Below, one piece after another: positions 1,972 through 56,649 of a stretch of 64,000 nucleotides of DNA. The stretch comes from Gammaproteobacteria bacterium. GTDB taxonomy: Bacteria; Pseudomonadota; Gammaproteobacteria; GCA-2400775. The notes under the pieces were generated by a model. That model was not told the DNA's origin. It searched no databases and worked only from the letters and a program-made list of their open reading frames with translations. Within the stretch, counting starts at the first letter, position 1. Each line of letters begins with the position of its first letter. The stretch is from NCBI GenBank assembly GCA_013151045.1, contig JAADIY010000038.1:311-64310 (forward strand), read 5' to 3'. Both the position numbers and the translations under genes were made by a program.

Positions 1972-2556
1972 TTATGTCGGTGCTTTTGTGTGCAAACGTT
2001 TCATCACGGCTTCGAACTCACCTTCGATGATTGCTTCTATTTCAGCTAACGACTTGTCGAGAACATCGTCCAATAGCCGCTTATCGTCTGGTGACGGCTT
2101 ACTTAGTACATACGATGATACTTGGCTTGAATGACCTGGATGACCTATACCAATTCGTAACCGTAAAAATGCTTTGCTGCCTGTGCTTTGGCAAATATCG
2201 CGCAAGCCATTATGACCACCGTGACCACCACCACTTTTTAATCGCACTGTACCCGGCGGCAAATCGAGTTCATCGTAGATGACCAAGGTTTGTGCTGGTT
2301 CGATTTTATAAAAGTTGAGTAGCGGCGCTACGCTGCCACCACTGTCGTTCATAAACGTTTGTGGTTTTAATAAGCGGACGTCTCCGGCGGGGGTATTAGC
2401 TAAAGCTAACTCACCTTTAAATTTCGATTCTTCGCGAAAATTTGCTTGGTAACGTCTAGCGATGGCATCAAGCAACCAAAAACCCGCATTGTGACGGGTT
2501 TCAAGGTAACGCGGCCCTGGGTTACCAAGGCCGACAATACATGCAATGGCTGTCAT
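1972..2556 (-). CDS. pth: peptidyl-tRNA hydrolase
   Basis: 194 aa; N-terminal LIVGLGNPG..Y..TRHNAGF motif typical of Pth; synteny. Confidence 0.93.
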   Translation of the reverse strand: MTAIACIVGLGNPGPRYLETRHNAGFWLLDAIARRYQANFREESKFKGELALANTPAGDVRLLKPQTFMNDSGGSVAPLLNFYKIEPAQTLVIYDELDLPPGTVRLKSGGGHGGHNGLRDICQSTGSKAFLRLRIGIGHPGHSSQVSSYVLSKPSPDDKRLLDDVLDKSLAEIEAIIEGEFEAVMKRLHTKAPT

Positions 2557-2598
2557 GATGCTAACGCTATAACAGTATTAGCAAGACGCGAAACGAGC

Positions 2599-3255
2599 CT
2601 ATTCGGCTGCTGCGTCGCCTTCTGCTGCGTCGCCTTCTGTGGCAGCGGCATCATCAGCATCATCTATCGCACCACGTGGAAGATGAATACTGGCTACTGG
2701 CTGGGCATGTTCAGCACCGTGAGTTAAGGCAACAACCGTAACACCGTCAGGCACAACAATGTCTGACAAATGCGCTGCATCACCGACATTCAATTCAGAA
2801 ATATCAACGGTTAAGAACTCTGGCAAGTCTTTTGGTAAACAGCTAATTTCAACATCAATAGAGTGATGAGAAACATTACCACCTTGCAATTTAACGCCTG
2901 GCGCAACGTCTTCACCGGTAAAGTGAAGCGGCACGTTCATGATGATTTTTTCGTTAGCGTTAACACGTAATAAGTCAAAATGCAGAACACGTGCTTTACT
3001 TGGATGGCGTTGCAGGTCTTTTAAGACAACGTTCTCGGCCTTAGCACCGTCTACGGTGACGTCAAGAATATGCGAATAAAACGCTTCGTTATCTAGCTGA
3101 TAAGCAAGGTCTTTATGGGCAATAGAAACAGACACTGAGTCTTTACCATCACCATAGATAATCCCTGGAACCATGTCGCTATGACGTAGGCGGCGGCTCG
3201 CACCCTTCCCCTTGTCTGCGCGTGTTTCCAAGCTTAATTTAAATTCAAAACCCAT
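2599..3255 (-). CDS. rplY: 50S ribosomal protein L25 / general stress protein Ctc
   Basis: ORF with KGKGASRRLR motif near N-term, acidic C-terminal tail; second in-frame ATG (3255) has GGAGA SD 5 nt upstream so chosen over 3267. Confidence 0.85.
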   Translation of the reverse strand: MGFEFKLSLETRADKGKGASRRLRHSDMVPGIIYGDGKDSVSVSIAHKDLAYQLDNEAFYSHILDVTVDGAKAENVVLKDLQRHPSKARVLHFDLLRVNANEKIIMNVPLHFTGEDVAPGVKLQGGNVSHHSIDVEISCLPKDLPEFLTVDISELNVGDAAHLSDIVVPDGVTVVALTHGAEHAQPVASIHLPRGAIDDADDAAATEGDAAEGDAAAE

Positions 3256-3310
3256 GTTGTTCTCCAATATCGCCCAATAATATTAGGCTATTACCAAGGC
3301 TCTAGCTTTA

Positions 3311-3341
3311 CTAGCCTAAAACCAAAAAATCCTCACTTGCG
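3311..3341 (-). terminator. rho-independent terminator downstream of prs
   Basis: On minus strand: stem cctcact/agtgagg (7 bp, loop ggtcgca) followed immediately by auuuuuugguuu; located ~50 nt after prs stop and before rplY promoter region. Confidence 0.55.
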
Positions 3342-3391
3342 ACCAGTGAGGAATGCTTGCGCATCTTGTTGCGGCATTTTTAATGCCGCCA

Positions 3392-4330
3392 TTAATCTAT
3401 AAATAGCGAGCTTACTGATTCTTCTGCGTTAATTCGGCGCATGGTCTCTGCTAGCAATTCAGCAACGCTAAGCTGACGTATTTTTTTGCACGCTTTGGCA
3501 TCTTCACTCAATGGGATGGTGTCTGTAATCACCAACTCATCAATTTGCGAGCCTTCAATATTCTTGACCGCCTGACCTGACAATACGGCATGGGTGCAGT
3601 AAGCAAACACTTGCGCTGCACCTTTTTCTTTTAGCGCGCGTGACGCTTCGCATAAAGTCCCTGCCGTATCAACCAAGTCATCGACCAAAATACAACTGCG
3701 ACCTGCTACGTCGCCTATAATATTCATGACCTTAGCCATATTGGCTTGCGGGCGACGTTTATCGATAATCGCTAGATCAGCATCATCTAAGCGCTTAGCC
3801 ATAGCTCGCGCCCTGACCACGCCGCCCACATCTGGCGACACAACCATTGGCTTGCCACCCACTCGGCGCCATATATCGCCGAGCAACACCGGTGACGCAT
3901 AGACATTATCGACACCAATATTAAAAAAGCCTTGTATCTGGTCTGAGTGCAAATCTACTGTTAGTACGCGATCTGCACCGGCACTAGCAATCATGTCTGC
4001 GACCACTTTTGCGCTAATCGGCACGCGCGCTGAACGCGGGCGTCGATCTTGGCGCGAATAACCAAAATACGGTATCACTGCGGTGATGCGGCTCGCTGCT
4101 GAGCGTTTGACTGCATCGACCATCATTAACAATTCCATAATGTGGTCATTAGTCGGCTGACACGTCGGCTGAATAATAAATACATCGCGGCCACGGACAT
4201 GTTCAGCGAGCTCAACCTGAATTTCACCATCGCTGAAACTACCCACAAAAGCTTTACCTAGCGGTATATTTAGGTAGCGCGCAATATCTTTGGCCAGTGG
4301 CCGATTGGCATTACCTGAAAATACCATCAT
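3392..4330 (-). CDS. prs: ribose-phosphate pyrophosphokinase
   Basis: Strong Prs similarity (PRPP-binding motif, [11 protein letters not shown]...); six-frame ORF extends to 4462 but that overlaps tRNA-Gln; start trimmed to [13 protein letters not shown] matching Prs N-termini. Confidence 0.9.
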
Positions 4331-4428
4331 GGTCTTATCAATGAACATTGTGATCCACGTCATGCCCGTCGGCACGCTGCTATGAGTAGCGCTTACCGCC
4401 CTCACTAGGGCAGAAGCTAAAATGATAT

Positions 4429-4502
4429 TGGCTGGGGTGCCAGGATTCGAACCTGGGATCACGGGATCAAAACCCGATGCCTTACCGCTTGGCTACACCC
4501 CA
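4429..4502 (-). tRNA. tRNA-Gln (anticodon TTG)
   Basis: Reverse complement tggggtgtagccaagcggtaaggcatcgggttttgatcccgtgatcccaggttcgaatcctggcaccccagcca; anticodon loop tTTGa; matches E. coli tRNA-Gln architecture. Confidence 0.85.
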
Positions 4503-4518
4503 TCCACTTCTTCTAAAA

Positions 4519-5382
4519 CTACGCTGGCAAGCGACTTCGCTCGACCAACGGTGACACATCGACGCCTTTGGCTATAAAGCCACGCCACTTGTTCGGCATT
4601 TTAGCCAAAACTTGCTGCGCTGACGCTGCATCATCAAAATTCACAAAAACCGATGCCCCGGTTCCTGTCATCCGCGGTTTACCATAAGCGGACAGCCAGG
4701 CTAAGGCCTCAAGAACCGCGGGGTAGTGACGCGCCACCACCGATTCAAAGACGTTGACACCAACTCCACGAAAAAATCCGGCTATTGTGATGGGAGGACA
4801 ATTCCTTGTCAATTCAGGAAGCGAAAATATTTCACTTGTATTGATATGACAGGACGGGGTTATAACCAAATAATGGCGTTCACCCCAGTACTCAACCAGC
4901 TCTATTGGCTCTAACTGCTCACCAACACCTTCAGCCCACGCCGAATGCCCCTTAACGAATACCGGCACATCTGCGCCCAACTGAACCGCTAAATCAAGCA
5001 ACTCTTGCACGGGCAATTGTAATTGCCAAAGCCTGTTTAAAGCAACAAGTGTTGTTGCGGCGTCAGAACTACCTCCACCAAGCCCGCCACCCATGGGCAA
5101 ATGCTTGTCGAGTCGAATACGCACTCCGTGCGGGCATTGCGCATGCGATTGCAATAATTTCGCGGCACGTACGACCAAATCCTCTTCAGCTGGCACACCC
5201 TCAATATCATTGATGCGCGCAATCTCTCCGCCATCGACGATATCAAAATACAGCTCATCACCAACGTCGAGCAATTGAAACACCGTTTGCAATTCATGGT
5301 AACCATCATCACGGCGGCCGGTAATGTGCAAAAACAAATTAAGCTTAGCAGGCGCTGGCCATGAAAGTACATCAGTCATCAA
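4519..5382 (-). CDS. ispE: 4-diphosphocytidyl-2-C-methyl-D-erythritol kinase
   Basis: 287 aa GHMP kinase with PMGGGLGGGSSDAA motif; lolB-ispE-prs synteny. Confidence 0.92.
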   Translation of the reverse strand: MMTDVLSWPAPAKLNLFLHITGRRDDGYHELQTVFQLLDVGDELYFDIVDGGEIARINDIEGVPAEEDLVVRAAKLLQSHAQCPHGVRIRLDKHLPMGGGLGGGSSDAATTLVALNRLWQLQLPVQELLDLAVQLGADVPVFVKGHSAWAEGVGEQLEPIELVEYWGERHYLVITPSCHINTSEIFSLPELTRNCPPITIAGFFRGVGVNVFESVVARHYPAVLEALAWLSAYGKPRMTGTGASVFVNFDDAASAQQVLAKMPNKWRGFIAKGVDVSPLVERSRLPA

Positions 5383-5464
5383 TTCTTATTCGCTATCTGT
5401 GCATACAAGTTGGAGTTTAATATTAAGGGTTAGTGTTATTTTATACTACCAATAAACAGGCTAA

Positions 5465-6118
5465 CTAACTTGACAAGCTCCATCGATCGAGCACTAACTT
5501 CAGGCGTAAATTATCGTTTTCTATTTTTATTTTGCGCGGTAGATTAACTCCACGTAGTGGCCGATATGCCGAATAATCAATTTGCCAACCTTGCTGATTT
5601 AACTGATCAAGCACACCTGACGCATTCAACGTCAAACCATCTATCTGGCCCGGTGCCGGCAACCCACGCAACCAATAATGTAACGATGAGACTGGCACTG
5701 ACCAGCCTAAATACTCTAGCAACAATGCCTCTGCGTCGCTGGCAACGACTGCTTCTTGTCCCGCAATGTGCACACTAACTGTATCAGGAGAGCCCTCTAT
5801 CGTTACCGCACCTCGACCAAAAGGGCCAGCTAAACGCACGCGATAGTCATCAACATTTTGCTGCCAAGTCAGTGTTGCGCTCCAACTTTCTTTTTCGCTG
5901 CGCAAGGCCACGCGCCCTTTCGCATTCCAGATCGCTGCGCTAGTTATTTTTTGTTGATGTTGCAACCACAGTAATTTTGTTTCATTAGACGCACCAACAT
6001 TTGCTTGCTCTATTTGCTTAGGAGCGATTGCGCAAGCAGCCAGGCTTAAGGCAGCCAAAACAACAGAACCACGAAAACTCGTTAGAAACAACCTTGATAA
6101 AAAAACACGCTGAAACAC
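5465..6118 (-). CDS. lolB: outer-membrane lipoprotein LolB
   Basis: 217 aa; lipoprotein signal (LSLAAC); position immediately upstream of ispE as in many gammaproteobacteria. Confidence 0.8.
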   Translation of the reverse strand: MFQRVFLSRLFLTSFRGSVVLAALSLAACAIAPKQIEQANVGASNETKLLWLQHQQKITSAAIWNAKGRVALRSEKESWSATLTWQQNVDDYRVRLAGPFGRGAVTIEGSPDTVSVHIAGQEAVVASDAEALLLEYLGWSVPVSSLHYWLRGLPAPGQIDGLTLNASGVLDQLNQQGWQIDYSAYRPLRGVNLPRKIKIENDNLRLKLVLDRWSLSS

Positions 6119-6132
6119 AAAAATACGCTGAC

Positions 6133-7893
6133 TTATAGACCCAAACGCTGCATAACTTCCTTCAGCACTTTGTTTTCTGAGCCTTCCTTTGCTGCGTCAC
6201 GCAAGACGCGGCGCGCTTCTGCGCGCTGGCCCGTCACCCAGAGAATTTCGCCTAGGTGCGCTGAAATTTCAGCATCTGATTGAATCGCTAATGCGCGGCG
6301 GATATAGGCTAAGGCTTCATCAAAATTACCTAAACGAAATTGCAACCAACCATAACTGTCGAGAACAAAGTGGCTATCGCCTTTAAGTTCTAGCGCACGC
6401 TTAATATATTTTTCAGCTTCATCATAGCGCGTTGTGCTATCTGCTAAATAGTAACCCAATGCATTCAGCGCATCGGCATGGTGCGCATCAAGCACTAATA
6501 TTGCTCGCACATCTTTTTCAAACAACTCAAAACGTTCTGTTTGTGCGTAAACTAAACTTCTTGCATATAAGATTTGTGTATTACTAGGGTTAGCTTTTAA
6601 TGCCTCGTCATAAACCGCAATCGCTTCATCATAGAGGTTAGCATCTTGCAGCAAACCACCTTCAACGAGGCTTGTCTGCACTGCCATTGCAGGAATATTG
6701 GTGCGCAATACACCAAGCTGCGCACGCGCTGTCAGAATATCACCCTGCATTGCCGTTAAAATCGCTATGCGTATTTGCGCTTCGGTATAATTTTGACCGC
6801 CCGTGACTTGCGAATACAAACGTAATGCACCATCAATATCTTCACGCACTTCTGCAATACGCGCTAAGTTATACGGCACATTAGGATTAGACGAACCACG
6901 CTGATACAAGGATTTAAATTGTGCTTCAGCAGCATCAATTTGTTGTAATTGCAACGACAATAAGCCACTGGCAAAAATAACTTCATCATTGTCTGGTGCC
7001 ATTTCTGCTAAACGCTGGTACTGCTCTAAGGCTTCGTCATAACGCCCAGCATCAACCAATAAGCCGGCGTAAGTGGAGCGCAAATCAAAATTATTCAGCT
7101 GCCGCTCTACTGCAGACGCTAAAAATTCAGCGGCCTCATTATTTTTCTGCATGCGACGTAATATTAAGGTTTTTTGCAGTATCACTGCTTGCTCGTCACC
7201 ACGCGCTTGCAACACTGGCTCTAATTCGCGGTTAGCACGCTCATACTGGCCAAACTGTAAGGCTAAGTAACTTTTGGCATAAGCAGCATCAATATCGCCA
7301 TTATGTGCTGCTGCCAATCGATCCATCAATTCTGTTGCGGCATCGCGCTGACGCGTCGCCACTAACAAACGTGCGACATACAAGAAGCCTTTACCTTCTT
7401 CATTAGCACGGCTGGCGCGAATCTGCTCTAGTCGCGTGTAGGCGTCATCAATACGCTGCTCACTTAAATATAAGCGCGTCACCAATGCCAACGCACGCTC
7501 ATCATTAGGGTTTATCTCCAACCAAAGCTCTAGTGCCGCTAATGCTCGCTTGCTATCGCCGGCTTGCATCGCCGACCGCACGGCATCTTCGGCCAAAGAG
7601 ACATCGCTGTTACGTCGCGCTAATTCAAGGTAATTTTCTGCGGCGACATTATAGTTTTGTCGCTGTGTTGAGATATCGGCAACCAAAAAGTCATACAAAT
7701 CATCTTTGTCTAACGATGACTCTATTACCGGCTGAGGCTGAATAAGCGCTGCGCTAGGTTTTGGCTGCTTGCTTTTATTAGCGCATGAAGACAAGCCAAC
7801 AACGGCAAATGCCGTTAAGGTCACCATCAAACAAGATTGGCCGACACTCTTCAGGCACCGAGAGCTTAAAAACTGAGTATTTTCTATTCGCAT
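6133..7893 (-). CDS. TPR-repeat lipoprotein (PA4667-like)
   Basis: 586 aa, lipobox (LSSCANKS), multiple TPR-like helical repeats; conserved neighbor of lolB/hemA in pseudomonads. Confidence 0.8.
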   Translation of the reverse strand: MRIENTQFLSSRCLKSVGQSCLMVTLTAFAVVGLSSCANKSKQPKPSAALIQPQPVIESSLDKDDLYDFLVADISTQRQNYNVAAENYLELARRNSDVSLAEDAVRSAMQAGDSKRALAALELWLEINPNDERALALVTRLYLSEQRIDDAYTRLEQIRASRANEEGKGFLYVARLLVATRQRDAATELMDRLAAAHNGDIDAAYAKSYLALQFGQYERANRELEPVLQARGDEQAVILQKTLILRRMQKNNEAAEFLASAVERQLNNFDLRSTYAGLLVDAGRYDEALEQYQRLAEMAPDNDEVIFASGLLSLQLQQIDAAEAQFKSLYQRGSSNPNVPYNLARIAEVREDIDGALRLYSQVTGGQNYTEAQIRIAILTAMQGDILTARAQLGVLRTNIPAMAVQTSLVEGGLLQDANLYDEAIAVYDEALKANPSNTQILYARSLVYAQTERFELFEKDVRAILVLDAHHADALNALGYYLADSTTRYDEAEKYIKRALELKGDSHFVLDSYGWLQFRLGNFDEALAYIRRALAIQSDAEISAHLGEILWVTGQRAEARRVLRDAAKEGSENKVLKEVMQRLGL

Positions 7894-8088
7894 AAATAAA
7901 AGACGGTTGCTGGGGTAATTAGTTCTGGGTTTTAGTTTGGGTTAGAGCTTTATCTCTGATTTTATATTGTGGCTTTAAGCCTTGAGTTAAATTAAGGCGT
8001 CTTAACGCACTTTGAATATAAGCATACCCCATTCAGCAATGGTGGGGGTGATCAAACACGCATTACTGCCGCGCTCTTTCGCCACGTT

Positions 8089-9852
8089 CTATGGCGGTGT
8101 CTCGTATCCTTGGATTAGCGTATTGAGCAATTTATTACCCGGCGCATTAACCAGTCCTTTATGCCAGGTCATCCTAGCGCGGTCCATGCTCCCTGCTTTC
8201 CATAGAGCCTCTCCAAGATAAGCTGAGATCAGCGGGTCGTCATCCAACCTTGACGCTTTCTCTAAATATGACACTGCCGAAACATGTTTTCCTAATCGCA
8301 GTTGCAACCAGCCATAGCCGGTTAGCGTCGAGGGATCGCTAGGCTCTAATAACAAAGCGCGACCCAAATAGCTTGTAGCCTGATCGTAGCGCTCATCAGC
8401 CACCATGGCCATGCCCAACTCTAGCAAGCTGGAATGATGCTCTTCATCTATATCTAAAGCCGCCATCAAATCATCGCGGAACCCTTCTCGGTTACCTCTA
8501 TCACGTGATAACAATGCGCGCGCATGCAATAGTGCAGCATGCTGTCTAGGTGGCCCGTCAAAGTGACGCGTATAAAGCTCATAAGCTTCATCAGCACGGC
8601 CAGCAATCACCAGGGTCGTCCCTTCCAATATGAGCACATCAGCAAAGTGACCCACGGGGTTAGACTCACGCAATTCGGCAATTGCCGATAGCGCTACATT
8701 ATATTGACCCTTGCTGACGAATAATTCGGCGGCACGTACTTGGCTTTCAAAAAAGAATTGGCTTGCACCCACCGAGCGATACCATGAAATAGCGGTATCG
8801 ATTTTGCTGTTCTCTTCTTCAATTTTACCGAGCATGTATTTAGCTTCTTCACCACGCTCGCCTCGCACAATCAGCTCTAAATAGTAACGCCACGCTGCAT
8901 CATAATCGTCGAGCCTATAAGCCATTTGCGCGAGCGCATAAATATAATCTTCATTCTCATTATCGTATTCGGTCAATATCAGATACTGCGCGAAGCTTTC
9001 AACTAATTGATCTAAACCGGCGAGCAAGCGTGCGTAGTACGCGCGCACCTGAAGGTCGTCAGGGTAGGACCGTAAAAACTTAAACAGATGATCGACCGCC
9101 TCGTCACTTCTATTGAGCAACTGTAACGATGATGCATATTGCACCGCGGCTGGACTAAAATCGGGCTGTATATCAAGTGCCCAACGACTTTCGCTTATCG
9201 AAAGCTCGTATAATCGAAAGCGCGTGGCAAGGTCAGCCATAGCAAAATGCGCATAAACATCGTATTGATGCCGCTGTACTAAACCTTGCATCAACTTGAT
9301 CGAAACTAGGTTGCTCGGATCACGAAACAATAAAGGCAGTAGTGGTAAATAACCGTGGTAACCATCACCAACACTTAGTTGGCGTAGACGATCGAGCTCG
9401 TCAACAGCTGGCTCAATCGCCGCCAAGCGTGAATAGGCGCGAATACGAAATTCGATCGCCATTTGGTCATCAGGATCGAGCCGAGCCCATAGTTTACCGG
9501 CAGCAAGCGCTGTTTTCCGATCATCTGCCAACAGCGCTGCACGCATTGCGTACTCGGCTAGCTGCACTTCTGGGTTGGTTTGCGCCGCGCGAAAAAAGTG
9601 GATCGCCGCAATATCAAACTCGCCGCTATCAAATGCAAGAAAACCTACCAGCAGATCGTAAGCACTATCGACCTTGGCCTGCGTAGCATTATTCGCACTA
9701 ACCGTAGATGTCACTAACAAAGACTCGTCAGCATCAGACTGGTCTGACCATATTGGCGTAGCGAGCAATGCCATTATTAAGCCAATAACAAACGTTATGC
9801 GCCGAGCTATGCTTTGGGCAGGGTATCTCTTAGTCCATTTTAACTTTGGCAT
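8089..9852 (-). CDS. TPR-repeat protein, tandem paralog of 6133-7893
   Basis: 587 aa; N-terminal signal/TM; C-terminal region alignable with upstream TPR protein (GYGWLQLRLG / SYGWLQFRLG; AYLGEALW / AHLGEILW). Confidence 0.8.
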   Translation of the reverse strand: MPKLKWTKRYPAQSIARRITFVIGLIMALLATPIWSDQSDADESLLVTSTVSANNATQAKVDSAYDLLVGFLAFDSGEFDIAAIHFFRAAQTNPEVQLAEYAMRAALLADDRKTALAAGKLWARLDPDDQMAIEFRIRAYSRLAAIEPAVDELDRLRQLSVGDGYHGYLPLLPLLFRDPSNLVSIKLMQGLVQRHQYDVYAHFAMADLATRFRLYELSISESRWALDIQPDFSPAAVQYASSLQLLNRSDEAVDHLFKFLRSYPDDLQVRAYYARLLAGLDQLVESFAQYLILTEYDNENEDYIYALAQMAYRLDDYDAAWRYYLELIVRGERGEEAKYMLGKIEEENSKIDTAISWYRSVGASQFFFESQVRAAELFVSKGQYNVALSAIAELRESNPVGHFADVLILEGTTLVIAGRADEAYELYTRHFDGPPRQHAALLHARALLSRDRGNREGFRDDLMAALDIDEEHHSSLLELGMAMVADERYDQATSYLGRALLLEPSDPSTLTGYGWLQLRLGKHVSAVSYLEKASRLDDDPLISAYLGEALWKAGSMDRARMTWHKGLVNAPGNKLLNTLIQGYETPP

Positions 9853-10019
9853 CTAGCCTCCGCGTGCCCTGCTCCCAAATATTTCTGAGACTCGGGCAAT
9901 TCGCCTCTTCCGAGAGCCGATTATTCGCATAATCACTCACAAAACTATCACCTCAACTATGTCCATCAGTATTAAGGGTGATAACGATCGGTCATCGTCT
10001 GTATCAACTCACTTTGAGA

Positions 10020-10660
10020 GTTAACAAGCAAAGCCTGTGCCTAAATTTTAGGCACAGCGGCTTTCTCGCCATCATGCCACAATACTTCACCATAATATCC
10101 TGCTGCTATCGCAGCCTCAGACCGCAGTTTTAGCAATGGCTCTAAATATTACCGTGCCTGGTGATAACACTCCTGCCCTACTAAAAACACACTCAAAACG
10201 GTAGGACTGGTACTGTGCTCAGGGCCATCAGTCAATAATTTCTTAAGCTTTGACTCGAAATAAGGCGGGTCACCGTAGTTTTTCGCTAAAACCGCCCGCG
10301 CCAATAGCAAATCCTGATCATTAGGCACCTCTTCTAAGTTAACCTCATAAACACTTTGGCTGCATCTGACTTACCCGCTTGCAGCAGCGGAGCTGCTTCT
10401 AACACTGCTAGCTCGGCACCGAAACAGCTAAAACCACGCAATTCACTAAATAGTGACGTGCTGCCACAACATACCGACTATCTTGGCGGGTAATATTCGC
10501 CAACAAAATGGCTTTGCCCACCGAATTCGCTGCATACTGCCCGATATCGCTGATTATATTCTCAGCATTGGCCAAGGCTGGCGCCAAAAATCGAGCATTA
10601 TTGCTCCCAGATTACCTGCTCGACGGTGTTTGAGCTGAGCGCCATGCTACCCAGCATTCT
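10020..10660 (-). pseudogene. decayed gene remnant (unknown family) with frameshifts/stops
   Basis: 880-bp ORF-poor gap between TPR gene and hemA; minus-strand fragments translate to protein-like stretches (e.g. NLEEVPNDQDLLLARAVLAKNYGDPPYFESKLKKLL; ALANAENIISDIGQYAANSVGKAILLANITRQDSRYVVAARHYL) in different frames separated by stops. Confidence 0.3.
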
Positions 10661-10822
10661 TTCACCTTATAATAAAATGACTACATCAACGTCAGTGGGT
10701 TCGCAGCTCATTAATTCGGCTCAGGCCAAAGTCATCACTTGCCATCGCCGCAATTTGCTATAATTACCTGTTATATAGCATTTATAGACGGCCTGAGAAA
10801 CCTCGCCTTCCTGGTAACAACC

Positions 10823-12088
10823 TTGACAGCATTAATCGCCATCGGAATTAACCACAAAACTGCGCCGCTTGAAGTTCGTGAGCGCGTTGCGTTTGCACCT
10901 GAGCGTATGGTTGATGCCTTACATGAAATTATTGGCAAAACTCCCGCTAGTGAAGCCAGCATACTGTCCACTTGTAATCGCACCGAATTGTTATGCTCAG
11001 CCGAACCTAGCGATAGCGAACATATTGTCAGTTGGTTTCGTGATTACCATGGCCTGACCCAAGAAGAAGTCGAACCCTATCTCTACGTCTTTCCCGCACA
11101 CAATGCAGTGCGGCACTTAATGCGCGTGGCAAGCGGATTAGACTCAATGGTATTAGGCGAACCGCAAATACTGGGGCAAGTAAAAGATGCCTACAGTAGC
11201 GCTAAAGAAGCCGGCACAGCGGGGCGTCTGCTTAACGGTGTTTATCAGCATGTCTTTTCTGTTGCTAAACAAGTACGTACTGATACGGCTATTGGCTCTA
11301 GCCCAGTATCGGTTGCCTTTGCCGCTGTCAGCCTCGCTAAACAATTGTTTTCTAACTTTGAAAAACATACCGCACTACTTATCGGTGCGGGCGAAACCAT
11401 AGAACTCACCGCTAAGCATCTTAGTGAAGCCGGTATGGGCAATTTAATTATTGCCAACCGCACGTTAGAACGCGCGCAAAAACTAACCCATTCATTAGGC
11501 GGCAAAGCCATTACGCTTGCCGAGATGCCGGATCATTTACAAAACGCCGATATCGTTATTTCTTCTACCGCGAGCCAACTACCTATTCTTGGTAAAGGCG
11601 CCGTTGAACGTGCTTTAAAGCAGCGCAAACATAAACCCATATTAATGATTGATATCGCCGTACCTCGCGATATCGAACCCGAAGTTAATCAGCTCGATGA
11701 CATTTATCTTTACAGTGTTGATGACTTGCAAGAGATCATCAACGAAGGCTTACGCTCACGCCAACAAGCCGCCGAACAAGCCGAAGAAATTATTAATGTA
11801 CAAGTGCTTCACTTTAATGGTTGGTTGCAATCACTTGATGCTGGCTTAACGATTGGCACTTACCGCCAAAACGCCGAACAACTGCGTGATGATGAATTGC
11901 AAAAAGCTTTGCAACTGATAGAACGTGGCGTTAACGCCGACGAAGTCATTAAACGTTTTGCTTACAACCTAACTAATAAATTGATTCATCACCCCAGCTC
12001 GCAAATGAAAAAAGCCAGCTATGAGGGACGTAACAATGTTATCGATGTTGCGCGCGAATTACTTGGCATTAAAGACCTCGACAACTAA
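10823..12088 (+). CDS. hemA: glutamyl-tRNA reductase
   Basis: Six-frame ORF starts 10739 but HemA homology begins at TTG 10823 (MTALIAIGINHKTAPLEVRERV matches canonical HemA N-terminus); NADP Rossmann motif GAGETIE. Confidence 0.88.
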   Translation: MTALIAIGINHKTAPLEVRERVAFAPERMVDALHEIIGKTPASEASILSTCNRTELLCSAEPSDSEHIVSWFRDYHGLTQEEVEPYLYVFPAHNAVRHLMRVASGLDSMVLGEPQILGQVKDAYSSAKEAGTAGRLLNGVYQHVFSVAKQVRTDTAIGSSPVSVAFAAVSLAKQLFSNFEKHTALLIGAGETIELTAKHLSEAGMGNLIIANRTLERAQKLTHSLGGKAITLAEMPDHLQNADIVISSTASQLPILGKGAVERALKQRKHKPILMIDIAVPRDIEPEVNQLDDIYLYSVDDLQEIINEGLRSRQQAAEQAEEIINVQVLHFNGWLQSLDAGLTIGTYRQNAEQLRDDELQKALQLIERGVNADEVIKRFAYNLTNKLIHHPSSQMKKASYEGRNNVIDVARELLGIKDLDN

Positions 12089-12142
12089 GCACCAACACCT
12101 AAACATATTGTTCACCACAGACCTCACACTCGGAAATTTACA

Positions 12143-13231
12143 GTGAAACCCACCATTATTGCCAAGCTCGAAAACATCGGCGAACGCCTAGAAGAACTCA
12201 GCGCATTACTCGCTGATCCTGGCGTTATGAGTGATCAAAATCGTTTCCGCAGCCTATCGCAAGAATATTCTAAGCTCGAGCCCGTGGTTCAGTGTTTCAA
12301 TAACTATAAACAAACACTCAACGATATTGATGGCGCTAAAGAACTGTTGAAAGACAGCGATCTTGACGTACGCGAAATGGCTAAAGAAGAATTCAACGAT
12401 AGCGAAACACGGAAAGAAGAATTAGAACAAGAACTACAGGTTTTATTGCTGCCTACCGACCCTCACGATGACAGCAATATCTTTTTAGAAGTCCGCGCCG
12501 GTACTGGCGGCGACGAAGCCGCTATTTTTGCCGGCGATCTATATCGTATGTATTCCCGCTATGCTGAAAACAAAGGTTGGCAAATTGAACTCATCAATAG
12601 TAACGCAGGTGAACATGGCGGCTTTAAAGAAATCATTGTGCGCTTAATTGGCCAAGGTGCTTATTCACGCTTGAAATTTGAGTCTGGCGCGCATCGCGTA
12701 CAACGTGTACCGGAAACCGAATCACAAGGCCGCATTCATACCTCGGCTTGCACCGTAGCCGTGATGCCCGAAGCTGATGAGATTGCAGAAATTGAAATAA
12801 ATCCATCAGACCTGAAAGTTGATACCTTTCGTGCCTCAGGCGCTGGTGGCCAGCACGTTAACAAAACCGACTCAGCAGTACGACTCACGCATTTACCTAC
12901 TGGTGTCGTGGTCGAATGCCAAGATGAGCGCTCGCAACATAAAAACCGCGCACGCGCGATGTCCGTATTAAAAGCTAGACTCCTCTCCGCTGAAGAAGAA
13001 AAGAAAGCGCAAGCCGAATCTGACACACGCCGCCAACTGGTCGGCAGTGGCGACCGTTCTGGTCGCATACGCACCTATAATTTTCCACAAGGCCGCGTTA
13101 CCGATCATCGCATCAATCTAACTTTGTATAAGCTCGAAGACATGATGCAAGGCAATGCCGATATGGTGATCGATGAACTCATCAAAGAACACCAGGCCGA
13201 CCAACTCGCCGCCATGTCTGACGACAGCTAA
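12143..13231 (+). CDS. prfA: peptide chain release factor 1
   Basis: 362 aa; GGQ motif ([16 protein letters not shown]); hemA-prfA-prmC synteny; GTG start. Confidence 0.93.
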
Positions 13232-13235
13232 TACT

Positions 13236-14175
13236 ATGGCAACACTTGCCAACGCCTTAGCAAATGCCACGCAACGTTTAGAGCACATATCAGATAGCGC
13301 ACGACTTGATGCCGAATTACTCGCCGGCCATTCCTTAGGCATGTCACGCGCACAACTCTTTACTCGCGATAGGGACATTATCAGCGCTGAATCCCTAGCT
13401 GCTTACGAGCCCTTAATACAACGTCGTGAACAAGGTGAACCTGTTGCCTATATTATCGGTAAACGTGAATTCTGGTCATTGGAACTCACCGTCAATGAGC
13501 ACACGCTCATTCCACGCCCTGAAACAGAATTACTCGTAGAATTAGCACTGAAATTTACCGATAAGAAGCAATTTTTTCACATTGCAGACCTTGGTACAGG
13601 TAGCGGTGCTATAGCACTTGCCATTGCTAAAGAACGTCACAACAGCGCTATCGACGCCTGCGACATCTCAACCCAAGCCTTGGCTACTGCAAGACTAAAT
13701 GCCCAACAGCACAATATCAATAATATTGAATTCATACAGAGCGATTGGTTTCAAAACCTGGCTCAAAAAAAATACGATTTAATTATTAGTAACCCCTTAT
13801 GTCGCGCCTGACGATAAACATCTACAACAAGGTGATGTCCGCTTTGAGCCAAAAACAGCGTTAAGCGCAGAGAATAATGGTTACGCCGATTTATTTAACA
13901 TTGCTGACCAAGCAAGAAATTATCTAACAAACAATGCTTATTTATTATTTGAGCACGGCTATGATCAACAGACTAAGCTAATCGAAGAGTTAAAAAACCT
14001 TGGCTACGTTGATGTCAAAGGACATAATGATTACGCACAACAAGCACGCGCCGTTAGCGCACAATGGAGAATGATAAATGATAAAAACGATCACACTGCC
14101 TCGCACTATGGTGAATGCCTTATTACACCAGGCGCAGCTTGCTGGCAAAAAGACAGCGCTAGGTTTAATTACCGA
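13236..14175 (+). pseudogene. prmC: release factor glutamine N5-methyltransferase PrmC/HemK, disrupted by frameshift in NPPY motif
   Basis: Frame 1 (13236-13811) ends ...LIISNPLCRA*; +1 frame continues with PYVAPDDKHLQQGDVRFEP... ; the catalytic NPPY codons read aaccccttat (13791-13800) i.e. two C missing from a C-run. Could be genuine pseudogene or sequencing error. Confidence 0.6.
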
Positions 14176-14449
14176 AAAAAATAATCAGGTGATCGGCCAC
14201 TACCCTTTCAGCGAAAGCATAAATTCCAGTGATATTAAAAAAACACTAGCAGAAATTCAAAACAATAACGAACAAATTTTTGCCGTCTATCGCTCAGGTG
14301 ATAATGAACAACACAAACTGCTTAATAAGGCTGTCGACAATAAAAACCTATTGCAGATGTCAATTTCACAAGACATAAAAGGCGTACTGCAACTTACCGG
14401 CGAACACGAAAAAACTGGGGCCAATGAAATACAGCTACTTATTAGCTAG
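14078..14449 (+). CDS. hypothetical protein (123 aa), AT-rich
   Basis: ORF with low GC relative to flanks; overlaps extended prmC 3' end; weak resemblance to a degenerate JAB/MPN-like N-terminal region only, not reliable. Confidence 0.4.
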   Translation: MIKTITLPRTMVNALLHQAQLAGKKTALGLITEKNNQVIGHYPFSESINSSDIKKTLAEIQNNNEQIFAVYRSGDNEQHKLLNKAVDNKNLLQMSISQDIKGVLQLTGEHEKTGANEIQLLIS

Positions 14450-14480
14450 AAATAGAAATACATCGTTAGAAGCCTAGAAT

Positions 14481-15029
14481 CTACCTCGCACCTTCTGCAT
14501 AGGCTCCCAAATCAAATCTACCTAAAGGCTCTTTCAAGCGGCCATTTACTAACCGACCAATGATCTTGTTCATCCCATAAACCCAACCCAAAATGGGTGC
14601 AAGCATTATAAACGGTGGTGTCATTATAAAGTGTTTCACTAAAGTAACATTCATTGAGAAAAATACGTTTCTAATTATTTCCCTCTGATCAGCATCGAGA
14701 TTTGATATTTTTCTCTCTAGTCTTTGATCAAAAGTCTCTTCATCTATCTGTTCATAAGTTTTATCAACAAGCAAAAAAGCTACCATATGCAGGAAACTTA
14801 TTCTATGCGAATAGCGAATAACACCATTCATCGTACTTCTGAGCATCCCATACGCATCATGATCAAATGGAATGTTATTTTCTACAGCCTGATCAAACAA
14901 ATCATCTCGCAAAGAAAATAAATCTTGTCTTAATTTATCCAATAAATAATCAGGATATAGCCAAAACAAAACCACAACTATCCCCAAAATGGATAACAAC
15001 GATAATATACTCATCAACTCAGCATTCAT
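14481..15029 (-). CDS. hypothetical membrane protein (182 aa), second gene of AT-rich two-gene module
   Basis: N-terminal TM helix (ILSLLSILGIVVVLFWLY), C-terminal hydrophobic segment; ATGA start/stop overlap with upstream gene 15026-15430. Confidence 0.55.
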   Translation of the reverse strand: MNAELMSILSLLSILGIVVVLFWLYPDYLLDKLRQDLFSLRDDLFDQAVENNIPFDHDAYGMLRSTMNGVIRYSHRISFLHMVAFLLVDKTYEQIDEETFDQRLERKISNLDADQREIIRNVFFSMNVTLVKHFIMTPPFIMLAPILGWVYGMNKIIGRLVNGRLKEPLGRFDLGAYAEGAR

Positions 15030-15430
15030 AAGATATCCTCAGGTCTACTATCACCGCGAGTAGTTAAGTTACTAGTTGATCTACTCGGATCAATTTTCAA
15101 CTCCAACTCGATAATCCTTGTCTGAAGCTTTTCTACTGTATCTTTACGCAATTTCTTTTGAAGAAAACCATAAATCACTGATATCACCGCAGTTACTACT
15201 ATAATAGTAACACTAACTTCCACTTCACCAAGAAATGATATTCCTATATCGGCTAATGTCGTATTTCCTGCAAGTGCATCAATTGATAAATAAATATAAC
15301 GTGCCAATAATACAATGGCGCCCCATTTTATTAAACTATTGGTAATAGAGACTAACCCCTCCATCAACCTTGATTTACGTAAGGACTTAAGATCAACTTC
15401 GAGTTCAGACCGTGATTTTCGCTTTCCCAA
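15026..15430 (-). CDS. hypothetical membrane protein (134 aa), first gene of AT-rich two-gene module
   Basis: TTG start preceded by AAGGAG SD (8-nt spacing); basic N-terminus, one or two TM helices, C-terminal coiled-coil-like segment; AT-rich. Confidence 0.5.
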   Translation of the reverse strand: MGKRKSRSELEVDLKSLRKSRLMEGLVSITNSLIKWGAIVLLARYIYLSIDALAGNTTLADIGISFLGEVEVSVTIIVVTAVISVIYGFLQKKLRKDTVEKLQTRIIELELKIDPSRSTSNLTTRGDSRPEDIL

Positions 15431-15482
15431 TTAGTACACTCCTTGTAGAAAAAACAACTATATCTATCCTTCAGATACCTAC

Positions 15483-16913
15483 CTAAGCTAATCTCTTCTT
15501 CAACAACTCATTGACCATCGCCGGATTAGCCTTGCCCTTACTGGCCTTCATTACCTGACCAACGAAGAAACCAAACAATTGTTCTTTACCACCTTTATAG
15601 GCTTCGACTTGGCCAGCATTATTGGCAATCACTTCATCAACGAGTGCTTCAATCGCACCCGCATCCGTGACTTGCTTTAGACCTTTGGCTTCGACAATGG
15701 TATCAACATCACCTTCGCCTGCCCACATGGCTTCGAACACAGTCTTGGCGATTTTCCCTGAGATCGTATTGTCTTTAATGCGGATTAACATACCGCCAAG
15801 CATTTCTGCGTTGACTGGGCTATCTGCTAAGTCTTTATCGTCTTTATTTAAAGATGCAGAAAAATCACCCATTACCCAGTTTGCTGCGAGCTTAGGTTCT
15901 TTACAGACGGCGACCACAGCTTCGTAATAATCAGCAAGCGGTCGGCTATCAGTAAGAATCGTCGCATCGTAATCGGACAAAGCAAACTCATCGACAAAAC
16001 GCTGGCGCTTGACATCGGGTAATTCGGGTAAGGTCTTACGCACACCTTCAACAAAACTTTCTTCCAACTCTACCGGCAATAAATCTGGGTCTGGGAAGTA
16101 ACGATAATCGTTAGCTTCTTCTTTTGATCGCATTGAGCGTGTTTCATCTTTGTCTGAATCATACAAACGTGTTTCTTGAACAATTACGCCGCCGTCTTCT
16201 AAGATCTCTTGCTGACGTTCGATCTCAAAATTAATGGCCTTTTCCATAAAACGGAAAGAGTTAATGTTTTTAATCTCGGCACGCGTGCCAAACTCTTCTT
16301 GGCCTTTTGGTCTTAAAGACACATTAGCATCACAACGGAAGGAGCCTTCTTGCATATTGCCATCGCAGATTTCGAGATAAATTAACAAGCCATGCAATTT
16401 TTTTGCGTAAGCAATGGCTTCTTTTGCTGAGCGCATATCGGGCTCGGTAACGATTTCAATCAACGGTGTGCCAGCACGATTGAGGTCGATTCCACTGTGT
16501 GCGGCAAAACCTTCGTGCATAGATTTACCAGCATCTTCTTCTAGATGCGCACGAGTAATACCTACTGTCTTCGTGCTAGCGTCTTCTTGTACGACATTGA
16601 TTTCGCCTTTACCAACAATAGGCAATTCGAACTGACTAATTTGATAGCCCTTAGGCAAATCTGGATAAAAATAATTTTTCCGTGCGAAAACTGAACGCAT
16701 GCCAATTTCTGCACCAATGGCTAAACCAAATTTCACCGCCATACGCACGGCTTCTTTATTGAGCACTGGCAACTGACCTGGAAAACCTAAATCAACCAAA
16801 CAAGCTTGACTGTTTGGCGCTGCGCCATAAGCCGTCGCTGCGCCAGAGAAAATTTTACTCTTTGTAGAAAGCTGAGCGTGTGTTTCTAGCCCAATGACAA
16901 CTTCCCATTCCAT
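15483..16913 (-). CDS. gatB: Asp-tRNA(Asn)/Glu-tRNA(Gln) amidotransferase subunit B
   Basis: 476 aa, strong GatB similarity throughout; gatCAB operon order. Confidence 0.95.
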
Positions 16914-30668: not shown

Positions 30669-32408
30669 ATGCTTACCAATACAACTACTGAGATCGTTCC
30701 CGTCGGTAAAGCCAAAATAATACGCGTCTTGCATATCGAGGATGATCGCTTCGACGCACGTTTTATATCAGCAGCCATCGCCGGTCATCACTGCCACATT
30801 ACCCATAGTAAAACTCTAGCGAACGCCATTAAACGGCTCAACCGCTATGCACATAATGTAGTGTTGCTTGATTTGAATCTGCCCGACTCACAAGGGCTTA
30901 ATACTATAGATACTCTACATGAACACTTCCCTGAGCTAGCTATCGTTGTCTTATCTAGCAACAACGAAGAAGATAACGCATTAGCAGCCGTGCGCCTCGG
31001 CGCTCAAAACTATATACCCAAAAATGTCGCCGATGCAGCACACCTTTTACGTACGCTGCATTATGCAATTGATCGCAAAGAGTACGAACTCAACTTAATA
31101 AGTTTGGCTTTTCACGATCCTGTTTCTAACTTGGCCAGTCGAAATTTATTTTTCAATACTTTACAACAATCTATGCAGCGATGCGATCGCACAAAAGAAC
31201 GCATGGCGCTCATGTTTCTCGATCTTGATCATTTTAAAGAGATCAATGATCAATATGGCCATGATGCCGGTGATCACGTATTGCGCGAATGCGCGCAACG
31301 GCTTTCTAAATGTGTAAGAAAACAAGATTTAGTCGCAAGACTAGGTGGCGATGAATTCACTGTTATTCTTGAGAATATCAAAGATTGTCGTAATGCCAAG
31401 CGTATCACCCAAAAAATTGTTAACAGCTTAAGTCAATCGATTGAAATTAATGGCATGCAAGTTAACATCAGCGCTAGTATCGGCATTTCATTTTATGATG
31501 GCCAGGTAGAAATTCCTGCCGAAACACTGATAAAGCAAACTGACATCGCCATGTATCACGCCAAAAAAGCAGGCCGCAATACCTACAAATACTTTATGCG
31601 CAACATAAAAGAGATTAATTCTCCAGGCGACAATATTTCTGCCCTACTCAATCATGCTTTAGAACACAATGAATTTCATCTTCACTATCAGCCTCAAATC
31701 GATGCCGAAACACATGAGCTAGTTGGCGCTGAAGCATTATTACGTTGGAACAATAAGGAGCTAGGCTCAGTATTACCGTCCGTATTCATTCCCTTACTTG
31801 AAGACAGCGGCCATATTGTTGAAGTCGGTGAGTGGGTATTAAAAACAGCCTGCCAAAACTGGGCAAGCTGGGTCAAGAAAGGCAAAATCAATACAAACAC
31901 GACCATTTCCGTCAATCTCTCAGCATTGCAATTTACCCAGGAAGACATTGCAAAAACCATTGCTAAAATACTTAGCAAAACCGGCCTCCAAGCCAGTCAA
32001 CTCGACTTAGAGCTCACTGAAAGCACCTTGCTCAGCAACACCGAACGTAATTTACATACGTTGAAGAAAATCAAAAACCTCGGTGTTAGCCTAACTATCG
32101 ATGACTTTGGTACCGGCTTTAGTTCGTTGCCTTATCTAAAACATTTTTGCTTTGATCGCTTGAAAGTTGACCGCTCTTATATCAACCATGTTCTCGACAA
32201 CTCCGTCGACGCGGCAATTTCATCGTCGATTATTAACTTAGCAAAAAACTTAGACCTCAAAGTCATCGCAGAAGGCGTAGATAGCTGGGATAAAGTCAGC
32301 CGTGTTAAATCTTATGGTTGCACAATCATGCAAGGCTTCTATTACAGCAGACCTCTTGCGGCGAATACCTTTTTAGAGCGTTATGCCTGCGCCGCTATTG
32401 TTCATTAA
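30669..32408 (+). CDS. response-regulator receiver-GGDEF-EAL protein (c-di-GMP turnover)
   Basis: N-terminal REC domain (LLDLNLPD), intact GGDEF (RLGGDEF) and EAL (EALLRW) motifs. Confidence 0.88.
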   Translation: MLTNTTTEIVPVGKAKIIRVLHIEDDRFDARFISAAIAGHHCHITHSKTLANAIKRLNRYAHNVVLLDLNLPDSQGLNTIDTLHEHFPELAIVVLSSNNEEDNALAAVRLGAQNYIPKNVADAAHLLRTLHYAIDRKEYELNLISLAFHDPVSNLASRNLFFNTLQQSMQRCDRTKERMALMFLDLDHFKEINDQYGHDAGDHVLRECAQRLSKCVRKQDLVARLGGDEFTVILENIKDCRNAKRITQKIVNSLSQSIEINGMQVNISASIGISFYDGQVEIPAETLIKQTDIAMYHAKKAGRNTYKYFMRNIKEINSPGDNISALLNHALEHNEFHLHYQPQIDAETHELVGAEALLRWNNKELGSVLPSVFIPLLEDSGHIVEVGEWVLKTACQNWASWVKKGKINTNTTISVNLSALQFTQEDIAKTIAKILSKTGLQASQLDLELTESTLLSNTERNLHTLKKIKNLGVSLTIDDFGTGFSSLPYLKHFCFDRLKVDRSYINHVLDNSVDAAISSSIINLAKNLDLKVIAEGVDSWDKVSRVKSYGCTIMQGFYYSRPLAANTFLERYACAAIVH

Positions 32409-32409
32409 A

Positions 32410-32689
32410 CCCAATAGAGATAGACGATAGTCAATTTTATATCGAAACCTATACAAAATTGGCAACACGAATGCAAGCCTTAATTAATGACTTGTTTGAA
32501 TACGCACGCACCAATAACAACGCACAGCGTTGCACCATGACTGACATGAATACTGTTCTCGAACATACGCGTAAAAATTCATACGAAGCCATCAATGAAA
32601 GTAACGCCAACATCATTAGCGACACCCTAGCTACTTTATCGATCAACCCACCATATACTATTCGCTTATTACAAATAAGCGATGATTAA
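32410..32689 (+). pseudogene. histidine-kinase remnant (fragment spanning post-H-box to N-box region)
   Basis: + strand frame overlapping end of GGDEF-EAL gene translates to IETYTKLATRMQALINDLFEYARTNNN...NANIISDTLATL, typical of HisKA/HATPase_c linker; no start, no ATP-lid; truncated both sides. Confidence 0.4.
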
Positions 32690-32765
32690 TTAAAAATTAA
32701 TCCCCGTTTCGATAATGACAAGTTCGAAATTTCAAGATGACATTAAAAACACCTAAGCCACTATT

Positions 32766-33710
32766 TTAGTTCACTTTATTCCAGTCATCATCGACAATAA
32801 AATAACGTTGCTTTTCTTGCCATAACACACCTTTATTCATCTCGGCTATTTGAATTGGCATGAAAACCAAGTTCTCTTTTTTGCTAGAAAAATAATTCAG
32901 AAAAAAAGATTTTAGCTCTCTAGCCGTTAGTAGCCTGTCTTTATCGCTAAGTAAAAATGGCGAACACCACTCTCTTCTTTCTAGCACTACCCAACTGCTG
33001 TTTTCGTCTTCACTCAACAATAGCAACAATTCATCTTCTCTTAGCCGTATACCCCTACTATGACTCGACTCAGAATCTATTGGGCTTTGCATACCCAGAA
33101 CAGAAGCCGGATAAAACAGCATACCTTTTAACGCAAGCTCTGAGCTAACACCCTCCACTCCAAGCTCATGCAATGACTCACACCCTTCTTCGGTTGTTGA
33201 TAGCCGCATTTGCCTATCAATCAACGTTGTATATTTTATATCTAGCCGGTCACCGCGCGCCGGGCCTATCCAAGAGCTGAGCTTAAACGGCTGGCTTTCT
33301 GCATCACAACCCTGCACACCGATATAAAACTTTATCGCCGTTTCGAGATGGATATGAATTTGACGTCGGCGGCAGTAATAGACGAAATCGTACTCGCCGA
33401 TCGTCTGTTTATTTTTTCTAACTTGTCTATTCTTTGCCAACAAGTCGGCTACGCCGGCGTAGCGTAAATAGTATTCCCATAGCGCCTCATAATAGATGCC
33501 GAGCCGTGTACTTTTCAGCGATGAGATGTGGTCAAGCAAGGTATTTGGGTTTTTATCTAAATCTAAAAACCATTGTTCCAAATGAGAAAAATGAATATTC
33601 ACCTCATTAAAGCTGGCAACATTACATCCGGATGCCATTAAATCTTTGCCAAAACAGGCGCAGTATAAATCTCGTACAGCATGCTGCGTTAGCTGCTGCA
33701 ACAGCGACAT
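32766..33710 (-). CDS. conserved hypothetical protein, DUF1853-like with putative PD-(D/E)xK motif
   Basis: 314 aa; start ATG overlaps ppx stop (operonic); segment EYDFVYY...IHIHLETAIKFY resembles D...E.K nuclease core. Confidence 0.6.
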   Translation of the reverse strand: MSLLQQLTQHAVRDLYCACFGKDLMASGCNVASFNEVNIHFSHLEQWFLDLDKNPNTLLDHISSLKSTRLGIYYEALWEYYLRYAGVADLLAKNRQVRKNKQTIGEYDFVYYCRRRQIHIHLETAIKFYIGVQGCDAESQPFKLSSWIGPARGDRLDIKYTTLIDRQMRLSTTEEGCESLHELGVEGVSSELALKGMLFYPASVLGMQSPIDSESSHSRGIRLREDELLLLLSEDENSSWVVLERREWCSPFLLSDKDRLLTARELKSFFLNYFSSKKENLVFMPIQIAEMNKGVLWQEKQRYFIVDDDWNKVN

Positions 33711-56130: not shown

Positions 56131-56244
56131 ACAATCTTCAGCCATTAGTCCCTCAGTCACATTGTGAAAAAATTTTTCAATTTCAAAAAATAGCTAACAT
56201 AGAATAATATTTGGCAATCCTCCTCGTTTAATATTATTGATGAT

Positions 56245-56603
56245 TTCAATCGAGGAGGTTTACGTAAGCAAACACAAAATGTACTAGAAAGCCTTACGCA
56301 TGCGCTTTGGTATCGACATGAACACCGACCACACGCCAGAAGAAGTAGGTAAATAATTTGATGTAACACGCGCACGTATACGTCAAACCGAAGTAAAAGC
56401 ACTACGTAACTACGCCATCCAACACGCTCAGAACATTTACGTAGCTTCCTCGACAGTGATGGCAACCCCACAGACAACGGACTTAAAGAGTCTTTGTCGC
56501 TATAACACTATAAGTCTCTCGGTTTCAGGCGTTAACTCAGTTGACTATAGCATCCAACTCATAACCGGAAGACTCCATGGTCAAGTCACGGAGGGCATAC
56601 CAA
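56245..56603 (+). pseudogene. degenerate duplicate of rpoD 3' end plus tRNA(CAT)
   Basis: Aligns to 50845-51212 at roughly 85-90% identity with a ~22-bp deletion and premature stop (taaataatttg vs caaacagtttg); tRNA-like part retains ctcataa anticodon loop but has disrupted stems. Confidence 0.75.
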
Positions 56604-56649
56604 ACTCATCAAATATTCTGGCCTTACTAATTTTTTTCTAGTCTAGAGC

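Follow-up and report, generated by a model that had tools for sequence, protein, structure and literature searches.

What is the AT-rich DNA that lies between prmC and gatB in the genome of a Gammaproteobacteria bacterium (GTDB lineage GCA-2400775), and what might its two small genes do? The locus is part of a stretch of 64,000 nucleotides (nt) (positions 311 to 64,310 of contig JAADIY010000038.1, assembly GCA_013151045.1), which we call the window and in whose positions all coordinates below are given unless another sequence is named. We found that the AT-rich DNA is a horizontally acquired cassette of about 1.0 kb encoding two putative membrane proteins, one of 134 amino acids (aa) named 2TM for its two predicted transmembrane (TM) helices, and one of 182 aa named 1TM for its single one. 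Profile comparison makes the 1TM protein a homologue of the component of that name in the 2TM-1TM-TIR anti-phage system of phage AC1. We think it somewhat more likely than not that the two proteins act against phages as an autonomous membrane module without a TIR partner.

Comparison with related genomes showed what had been inserted and where. In five relatives (L007, L008, L011, L012, and L013), the gene order is TPR-hemA-prfA-prmC-123aa, followed by convergent gatB-gatA-gatC and by mreB-mreC. The window keeps this order, but in the relatives the gene for the 123-aa protein and gatB are separated by a spacer of only 67 to 210 bp, with no membrane-protein genes in it. L013 is a close relative; its 123-aa protein is 96% identical to that of the window, the DNA identity is 87 to 95%, and the alignment covers window positions 13304 to 14454 and 15494 to 16304. 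Homology to L013 (blastn) thus breaks at 14454 and 15494, and refinement of the junctions by eye against L013 positions 1120 to 1260 placed the ends of the insert at about 14455 to 14466 and about 15455 to 15470. We take the cassette to span approximately 14455 to 15461 on the reverse strand (1007 bp), which includes a Shine-Dalgarno sequence, two open reading frames (ORFs), and about 20 to 30 nt on either side. It stands in place of the native spacer and its bidirectional terminator; in L013, the 72-bp spacer contains this terminator, aaaaaaaggccggtattaccggccttttttt, which the window has lost.

The GC content of the insert is 0.357, versus a mean of 0.456 for the window (z = −3.4), and none of 1219 other segments of the same size within the 64 kb is as low. 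The values are 0.32 to 0.35 over positions 14550 to 15450 and 0.43 to 0.52 in the flanks. The next-lowest kilobases of the window are 32001 to 33000 (0.389) and 56001 to 57000 (0.401). Because close relatives lack the cassette and its base composition is foreign, we conclude that it was acquired horizontally. A preliminary description of the window, made from the sequence by eye, had proposed this origin, had placed the insertion within the conserved hemA-prfA-prmC/gatCAB-mreB synteny, and had noted its lower GC content; all of this held up in the comparison, except that the insertion is about 1.0 kb and not the ∼1.4 kb then given. The ORF list contains no integrase, transposase, or other mobility gene in or beside the insert, and inspection of the ends of the insert turned up neither a target-site duplication nor direct or inverted repeats that were convincing.

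The two genes are as the preliminary description had them. The 2TM gene (15026 to 15430, reverse strand) has a TTG start in both the ORF list and the NCBI call (P0007), and an AAGGAG Shine-Dalgarno sequence (15439 to 15444, reverse strand), read from the sequence, lies 8 nt before it. The 1TM gene (14481 to 15029, reverse strand), which appears in the ORF list and was characterized with PADLOC, PHROGs, and AlphaFold2 (AF2), starts with ATG. The stop codon of the first gene and the start codon of the second share the sequence ATGA (15026 to 15029, reverse strand), an arrangement expected to couple their translation, and an overlap of 4 nt or 1 nt is present in most of the homologous loci. Both genes are codirectional with gatB (15483 to 16913, reverse strand), the native upstream gene, and lie 52 nt downstream of it, also as first described. 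A consensus scan from gatB to the 2TM gene found no promoter-like or terminator-like site, and the scan gave the cassette no promoter or terminator of its own. Because nothing of the kind separates gatB from the cassette, and because the terminator seen in L013 is lost here, the cassette is probably expressed by read-through from gatCAB.

The protein that links the cassette to phage defense is 1TM. It matches the PADLOC model PDLC02977 ("1TM-TIR") with E = 1.6e-10, residues 32 to 157 aligning to positions 30 to 152 of the 186 in the model, and the match lies outside the N-terminal TM helix. Among 125 diverse members of the 1TM family, 113 also match this model. The protein matches phrog_13156 as well (E = 2e-25), a PHROG with no assigned function. 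When 1.84 billion representative proteins were searched with the family profile, 3,092 clusters of the 1TM family passed E ≤ 1e-3, of which 2,151 also passed E ≤ 1e-10; the family matches listed are mostly 175 to 200 aa long. NCBIfam gave no match, and Pfam, which has no entry for the family, gave only a subthreshold match to SieB.

We rejected 1TM as a member of SieB (PF14163): the score was 25.1 bits against a cutoff of 26, only 2 of the 125 family members match, and comparison with the profile of lambda SieB gave a probability of 0.5%. There are resemblances to SieB, the superinfection-exclusion or abortive-infection membrane protein of lambda and P22, which is likewise about 180 to 190 aa long, has an N-terminal membrane anchor, and is carried by prophages, and an exclusion-type function is plausible. 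However, SieB is a single gene with no 2TM partner, and the Pfam match spans only 50 residues.

The AF2 model of 1TM, built from 125 sequences, is all helical and confident (predicted local distance difference test [pLDDT], 91.3; predicted template modeling score [pTM], 0.85). Its N-terminal helix is 47 residues long, and the first ∼20 of these form the membrane anchor (TM segment at about residues 5 to 25). Four residues are invariant in the family, R41, Y60, R64, and N68, all within the two helices that open the soluble domain; D31, R34, F38, F45, D46, G69, and R72 are nearly invariant. By hydropathy, most members have a second hydrophobic segment at about residues 131 to 155, around a conserved S-P. 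The model has no fold relative in the PDB (the best Foldseek hit had E = 0.5 and a template modeling [TM] score of 0.23), and a profile search of the PDB was also empty. In BFVD, the only notable fold match was a "minor tail protein" of Mycobacterium phage PhancyPhin (TM score, 0.59; E = 6e-3), which is uncharacterized. Of the profile and fold searches that the preliminary description had suggested for a family it could not recognize by eye, those with profiles gave the PADLOC 1TM-TIR match, and those with structures gave no solved relative.

The 2TM protein matches phrog_27816 (E = 7e-15) but belongs to no Pfam family, and a PDB profile search with its family was empty. The family alignment shows a basic N-terminal helix and two moderately hydrophobic helices separated by the conserved loop L-A-G-x-T-T-x-A-D-I-G, and a conserved helix Q-R-K-L-R-K-D-T-V-E-R-L; the C terminus is a tail whose conservation is striking, R-[ST]-S-S-x-L-T-x-R-G-[DE]-x-R-P-E-D. 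The AF2 model, from a four-sequence alignment, is a helical hairpin (residues 7 to 53 and 59 to 113) with a disordered tail. One of 16 relatives of 2TM matches the PADLOC 2TM-TIR model, PDLC02978, weakly (E = 0.022). We count this match as a hint of remote homology, and no more than that, because PDLC02978 was the model expected beforehand. The preliminary description had predicted two membrane proteins without recognizable catalytic motifs; both cassette proteins have hydrophobic helices, the domain libraries gave no catalytic domain for either, and Pfam and NCBIfam gave no confident assignment to a housekeeping family.

Several findings indicate that the two genes travel as a unit. We examined about 35 loci with the pair (L001 to L006, L016 to L023, L026 to L042, and L043 to L045), which represent roughly 26 distinct pairs. 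In every one of these that has this 2TM family, the 2TM gene immediately precedes the 1TM gene, with both on one strand. Across 26 pairs, pairwise identity in the 2TM family correlates with that in the 1TM family (r = 0.63; Mantel P ≤ 2e-4), which is what coinheritance as one module predicts. The hosts include metagenome-assembled genomes (MAGs) of Pseudomonadota, Planctomycetota, and Acidobacteriota, Burkholderia phages, and viral contigs in IMG/VR.

Some of the neighborhoods are clearly mobile or related to defense. In Burkholderia phage vB_FUB5a, the pair comes directly after the integrase; in a Mu-like contig (L021), it sits as a moron between virion-morphogenesis and protease genes; and in a third phage (L045), it has cI/cro-like genes on one side and, on the other, the holin-lysozyme-terminase block belonging to that phage. 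One locus adjoins SIR2 and a prophage integrase. Elsewhere, the pair is beside PD-T7-4 homologues and NERD, beside HigBA or Phd/YefM toxin-antitoxin modules, and, in three variants of one island, beside a cyclic oligonucleotide-based antiphage signaling system (CBASS), AAA_15/DUF4276, or methyltransferases. The last three loci (L003, L004, and L005, positions 4700 to 12500 of each) are from one metagenome and have in common an NTP_transferase anchor gene and the 2TM+1TM pair, which is identical in all three. Past the pair, the defense content differs: one has a CD-NTase+Cap15 CBASS, one a helix-turn-helix (HTH) gene and a nucleotidyltransferase, and one AAA_15+DUF4276 with methyltransferases. 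This looks like a variable defense island with the pair at its fixed edge.

Two of the loci deserve separate mention. The deposited annotation of vB_FUB5a omits the 151-aa 2TM gene (L006 positions 2462 to 2917; PQ789810.1 positions 34641 to 35096), which directly precedes an annotated 186-aa hypothetical gene, and 1 kb past the integrase is unannotated in the deposit. In a marine metagenome contig (L027, positions 2400 to 7600), two nearly identical 2TM+1TM pairs lie in a 3433-bp tandem duplication with HigBA between them. Each pair is flanked by direct repeats of ∼250 nt that contain a terminator hairpin, and a 36-nt palindrome, TTAATCATTATTATTTAAAAGAATAATAATGATTAA, just upstream of the 2TM start may be an operator. 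We rejected this contig as an integron cassette array: it is a segmental duplication with terminator-containing repeats, and no attC-like core sites were recognized in it.

The closest known system, and the only characterized relative, is Rst_2TM_1TM_TIR, which Rousset et al. (2022, PMC9122126) described from a defense hotspot of the P2-like phage AC1 and for which DefenseFinder and PADLOC have models. Whether lysogenic or cloned, the three-gene locus gives E. coli C protection from lambda, LF82_P8, and P2, and its authors proposed that a nucleotide messenger produced by the TIR protein switches on both membrane proteins (PMC9122126). The window cassette resembles this system in that the model of the 1TM component is matched both by the 182-aa protein and by most of its relatives, in the partnership of a two-TM with a one-TM protein (on the AC1 side, as read from the system name), and in being found in temperate phages. 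It differs in that no TIR gene occurs in the insert, which holds two genes only, or adjoining the pair in any other locus examined, among the 25 top Pfam families listed for the neighbors; and in that no homology was detected between 2TM of the window and the PADLOC 2TM-TIR model. The detection tools define Rst_2TM_1TM_TIR by all three genes, and the complete system is very rare and was undetected in one large survey. In contrast, the pair that lacks TIR, with about 3,100 1TM clusters, is much commoner, and it spans Pseudomonadota, Planctomycetota, and Acidobacteriota. We sought AC1-type loci with a TIR gene and found none by tblastn against phages at E ≤ 10 or in a viral scan with a broader alignment. 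A search of the literature for the model and PHROG identifiers and for follow-up of 2TM-1TM-TIR found only Rousset et al. 2022 and survey papers. We conclude that the cassette is not a member of Rst_2TM_1TM_TIR but a TIR-less relative of it within a much larger family that is unnamed and unstudied.

Other comparisons were less close. The TM effectors of CBASS (Cap15 and others), Pycsar, and Thoeris and the RexAB proteins of lambda are also small membrane proteins thought to halt an infection by disturbing the membrane, and RexAB is, in addition, a two-gene prophage module. However, no sequence or fold similarity was detected between any of these and the cassette proteins, and those TM effectors need a dedicated cyclase, TIR protein, or sensor, whereas the cassette is two membrane proteins with no enzyme encoded. 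On plasmids and prophages of Leptospira interrogans (L025 positions 3456 to 4558; L046 to L048), there is a 1TM homologue (hhalign probability, 99.6%) preceded by a gene for a small protein, with DprA and DUF4041 genes nearby; the upstream partner there, however, is annotated as DUF2335 and bears no relationship to the window's 2TM family.

We infer an anti-phage role for the pair from homology to one component of one validated system, and the recurrence of the pair in phages, at prophage ends, and in defense islands strengthens that reading. Several points weigh on the other side. The AF2 model of 2TM is of low confidence (pLDDT, 68). The 2TM protein of the window has no PADLOC match at E ≤ 1, PDLC02978 included. 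Many of the metagenomic loci with the pair are among ordinary metabolic or transport genes and not in defense islands, and the window locus resembles these solitary pairs. The tables of neighboring Pfam families hold the 25 top families, and a single weak TIR match in a far neighbor is possible. Finally, the AC1 genes were assayed only together (PMC9122126), and the membrane proteins may be inert in the absence of a TIR-made signal. The suggestion in the preliminary description that the pair is a defense module gained a homologue in a proven system and a set of phage, prophage, and defense-island loci; the housekeeping surroundings of many loci tell against it, and the function assigned to the pair is still a deduction from such comparisons.

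If the pair is a defense module, it could work as follows. The two proteins would form one inner-membrane complex in a ratio fixed by coupled translation. By the positive-inside rule, the basic N terminus of 2TM, its C-terminal helix, and its tail would be cytoplasmic, as would the helical domain of 1TM. The conserved tail of 2TM, disordered in the model of 2TM by itself, would probably dock on the conserved, arginine-rich face of 1TM that carries the Arg, Tyr, and Asn residues. A phage-dependent trigger might then release or rearrange the amphipathic hairpins, with the result that the membrane is depolarized or opened (abortive infection) or that entry of the phage genome is blocked (superinfection exclusion). 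In the window, with no promoter of its own and with the native terminator replaced, the cassette would be supplied constitutively by read-through from gatCAB. We offer membrane disruption of this specific kind tentatively and have more doubt than confidence in it. Somewhat more credible, yet still on the doubtful side of even, is the broader proposal that the pair is an autonomous and enzyme-free module, widespread and with a fold that has no solved match, which both senses and executes; the TIR gene of AC1 would then be a late addition to an older core and not its activator.

Of the other explanations, the one that survives best, though we judge it unlikely, is that the pair is a selfish addiction module, a membrane toxin with a membrane antidote in the manner of toxin-antitoxin pairs, and has no primary anti-phage role. 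The pair is a solitary, minimal cassette, among housekeeping genes in many loci, its two genes are strictly coupled, and it co-occurs with HigBA and Phd/YefM. Against this stand the homology of 1TM to a component of a system that blocks phages and the presence of the pair as a moron in phage genomes. The two readings also overlap, for many toxin-antitoxin-like modules are themselves defense systems.

A little less probable again is that the pair is an orphan effector, the membrane half of a system that needs a TIR or cyclase signal from elsewhere, or else the decaying remnant of a three-gene locus. The messenger proposed by Rousset et al. for AC1 (PMC9122126) would fit this idea, the invariant Arg/Tyr/Asn cluster of 1TM could conceivably bind a phosphorylated ligand, and one of the pairs adjoins a CBASS operon. 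Decay, however, would not be expected to preserve the pair as we find it: across the ∼35 loci, in several phyla and in phages, both ORFs are intact, coupled, and codiverging with no adjacent TIR gene. The abundance of the family is also hard to reconcile with dependence on a TIR partner, given some 3,100 clusters against a complete system that escaped one large survey.

We consider it improbable that these are ordinary accessory envelope proteins, related, for example, to stress or transport, with no connection to phages. It is true that neither protein has a catalytic or defense-specific domain and that many neighborhoods are of the housekeeping kind. But the distribution is patchy, the cassette being absent even from a relative with 87 to 95% DNA identity; its composition is foreign; phages and a phage-like plasmid carry the genes; and one of the proteins matches a PADLOC defense model.

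The holin-like alternative of the preliminary description, a lysis-timing or holin/antiholin-like pair left by a prophage, is rejected on context as very improbable: the proteins are indeed small, with moderately hydrophobic helices and genes found in phages, and an endolysin PHROG is faintly matched in its TM part (E = 0.16), but no endolysin or spanin adjoins the pair in any locus, no holin family is matched, L045 carries the pair apart from its own holin-lysozyme block, the pair of L021 is a moron among virion-morphogenesis genes, and no lysis gene or other phage gene is near the cassette in the window.

Next to the cassette is a gene that the preliminary description had included in the insertion but that proved to be native. 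This ORF (14078 to 14449, forward strand) encodes a conserved hypothetical protein of 123 aa; its GGAG ribosome-binding site lies inside the last codons of prmC, to which it is translationally coupled. The protein has 14 homologues, confined to closely related gammaproteobacterial MAGs and metagenome contigs, and the gene directly follows prmC in every contig recovered; its conservation at this place throughout the relatives examined is why we rejected it as part of the insertion. Its GC content, 0.40, is lowish but native, because the orthologues have values of 0.38 to 0.42. The protein has no match in Pfam, NCBIfam, or PADLOC, and a PDB profile search was also empty. In prmC itself, there is a 2-bp deletion within the codons for the catalytic NPPY (13790 to 13811; AACC--CCTTAT in the window versus AACCCGCCTTAT in L013). 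The resulting frameshift stops at about 13809 to 13811, and the remaining part can be read on in a different frame as far as about 14073. The deletion is either an assembly error in the MAG or a true pseudogene.

The locus offers a clean example from nature of a cassette without a promoter that has taken the place of a terminator and is driven, probably, by a housekeeping operon. With a confident model (pLDDT, 91) that has no match among solved structures, 1TM is a tractable structural target. If our reading of the pair is right, the family would be a common and very compact (1 kb) membrane-only defense module that current tools miss because they require the TIR gene. And if the pair works alone, the AC1 system would have been read the wrong way around: the self-sufficient membrane pair would be ancestral and form the core, and the TIR protein would be an accessory to it.

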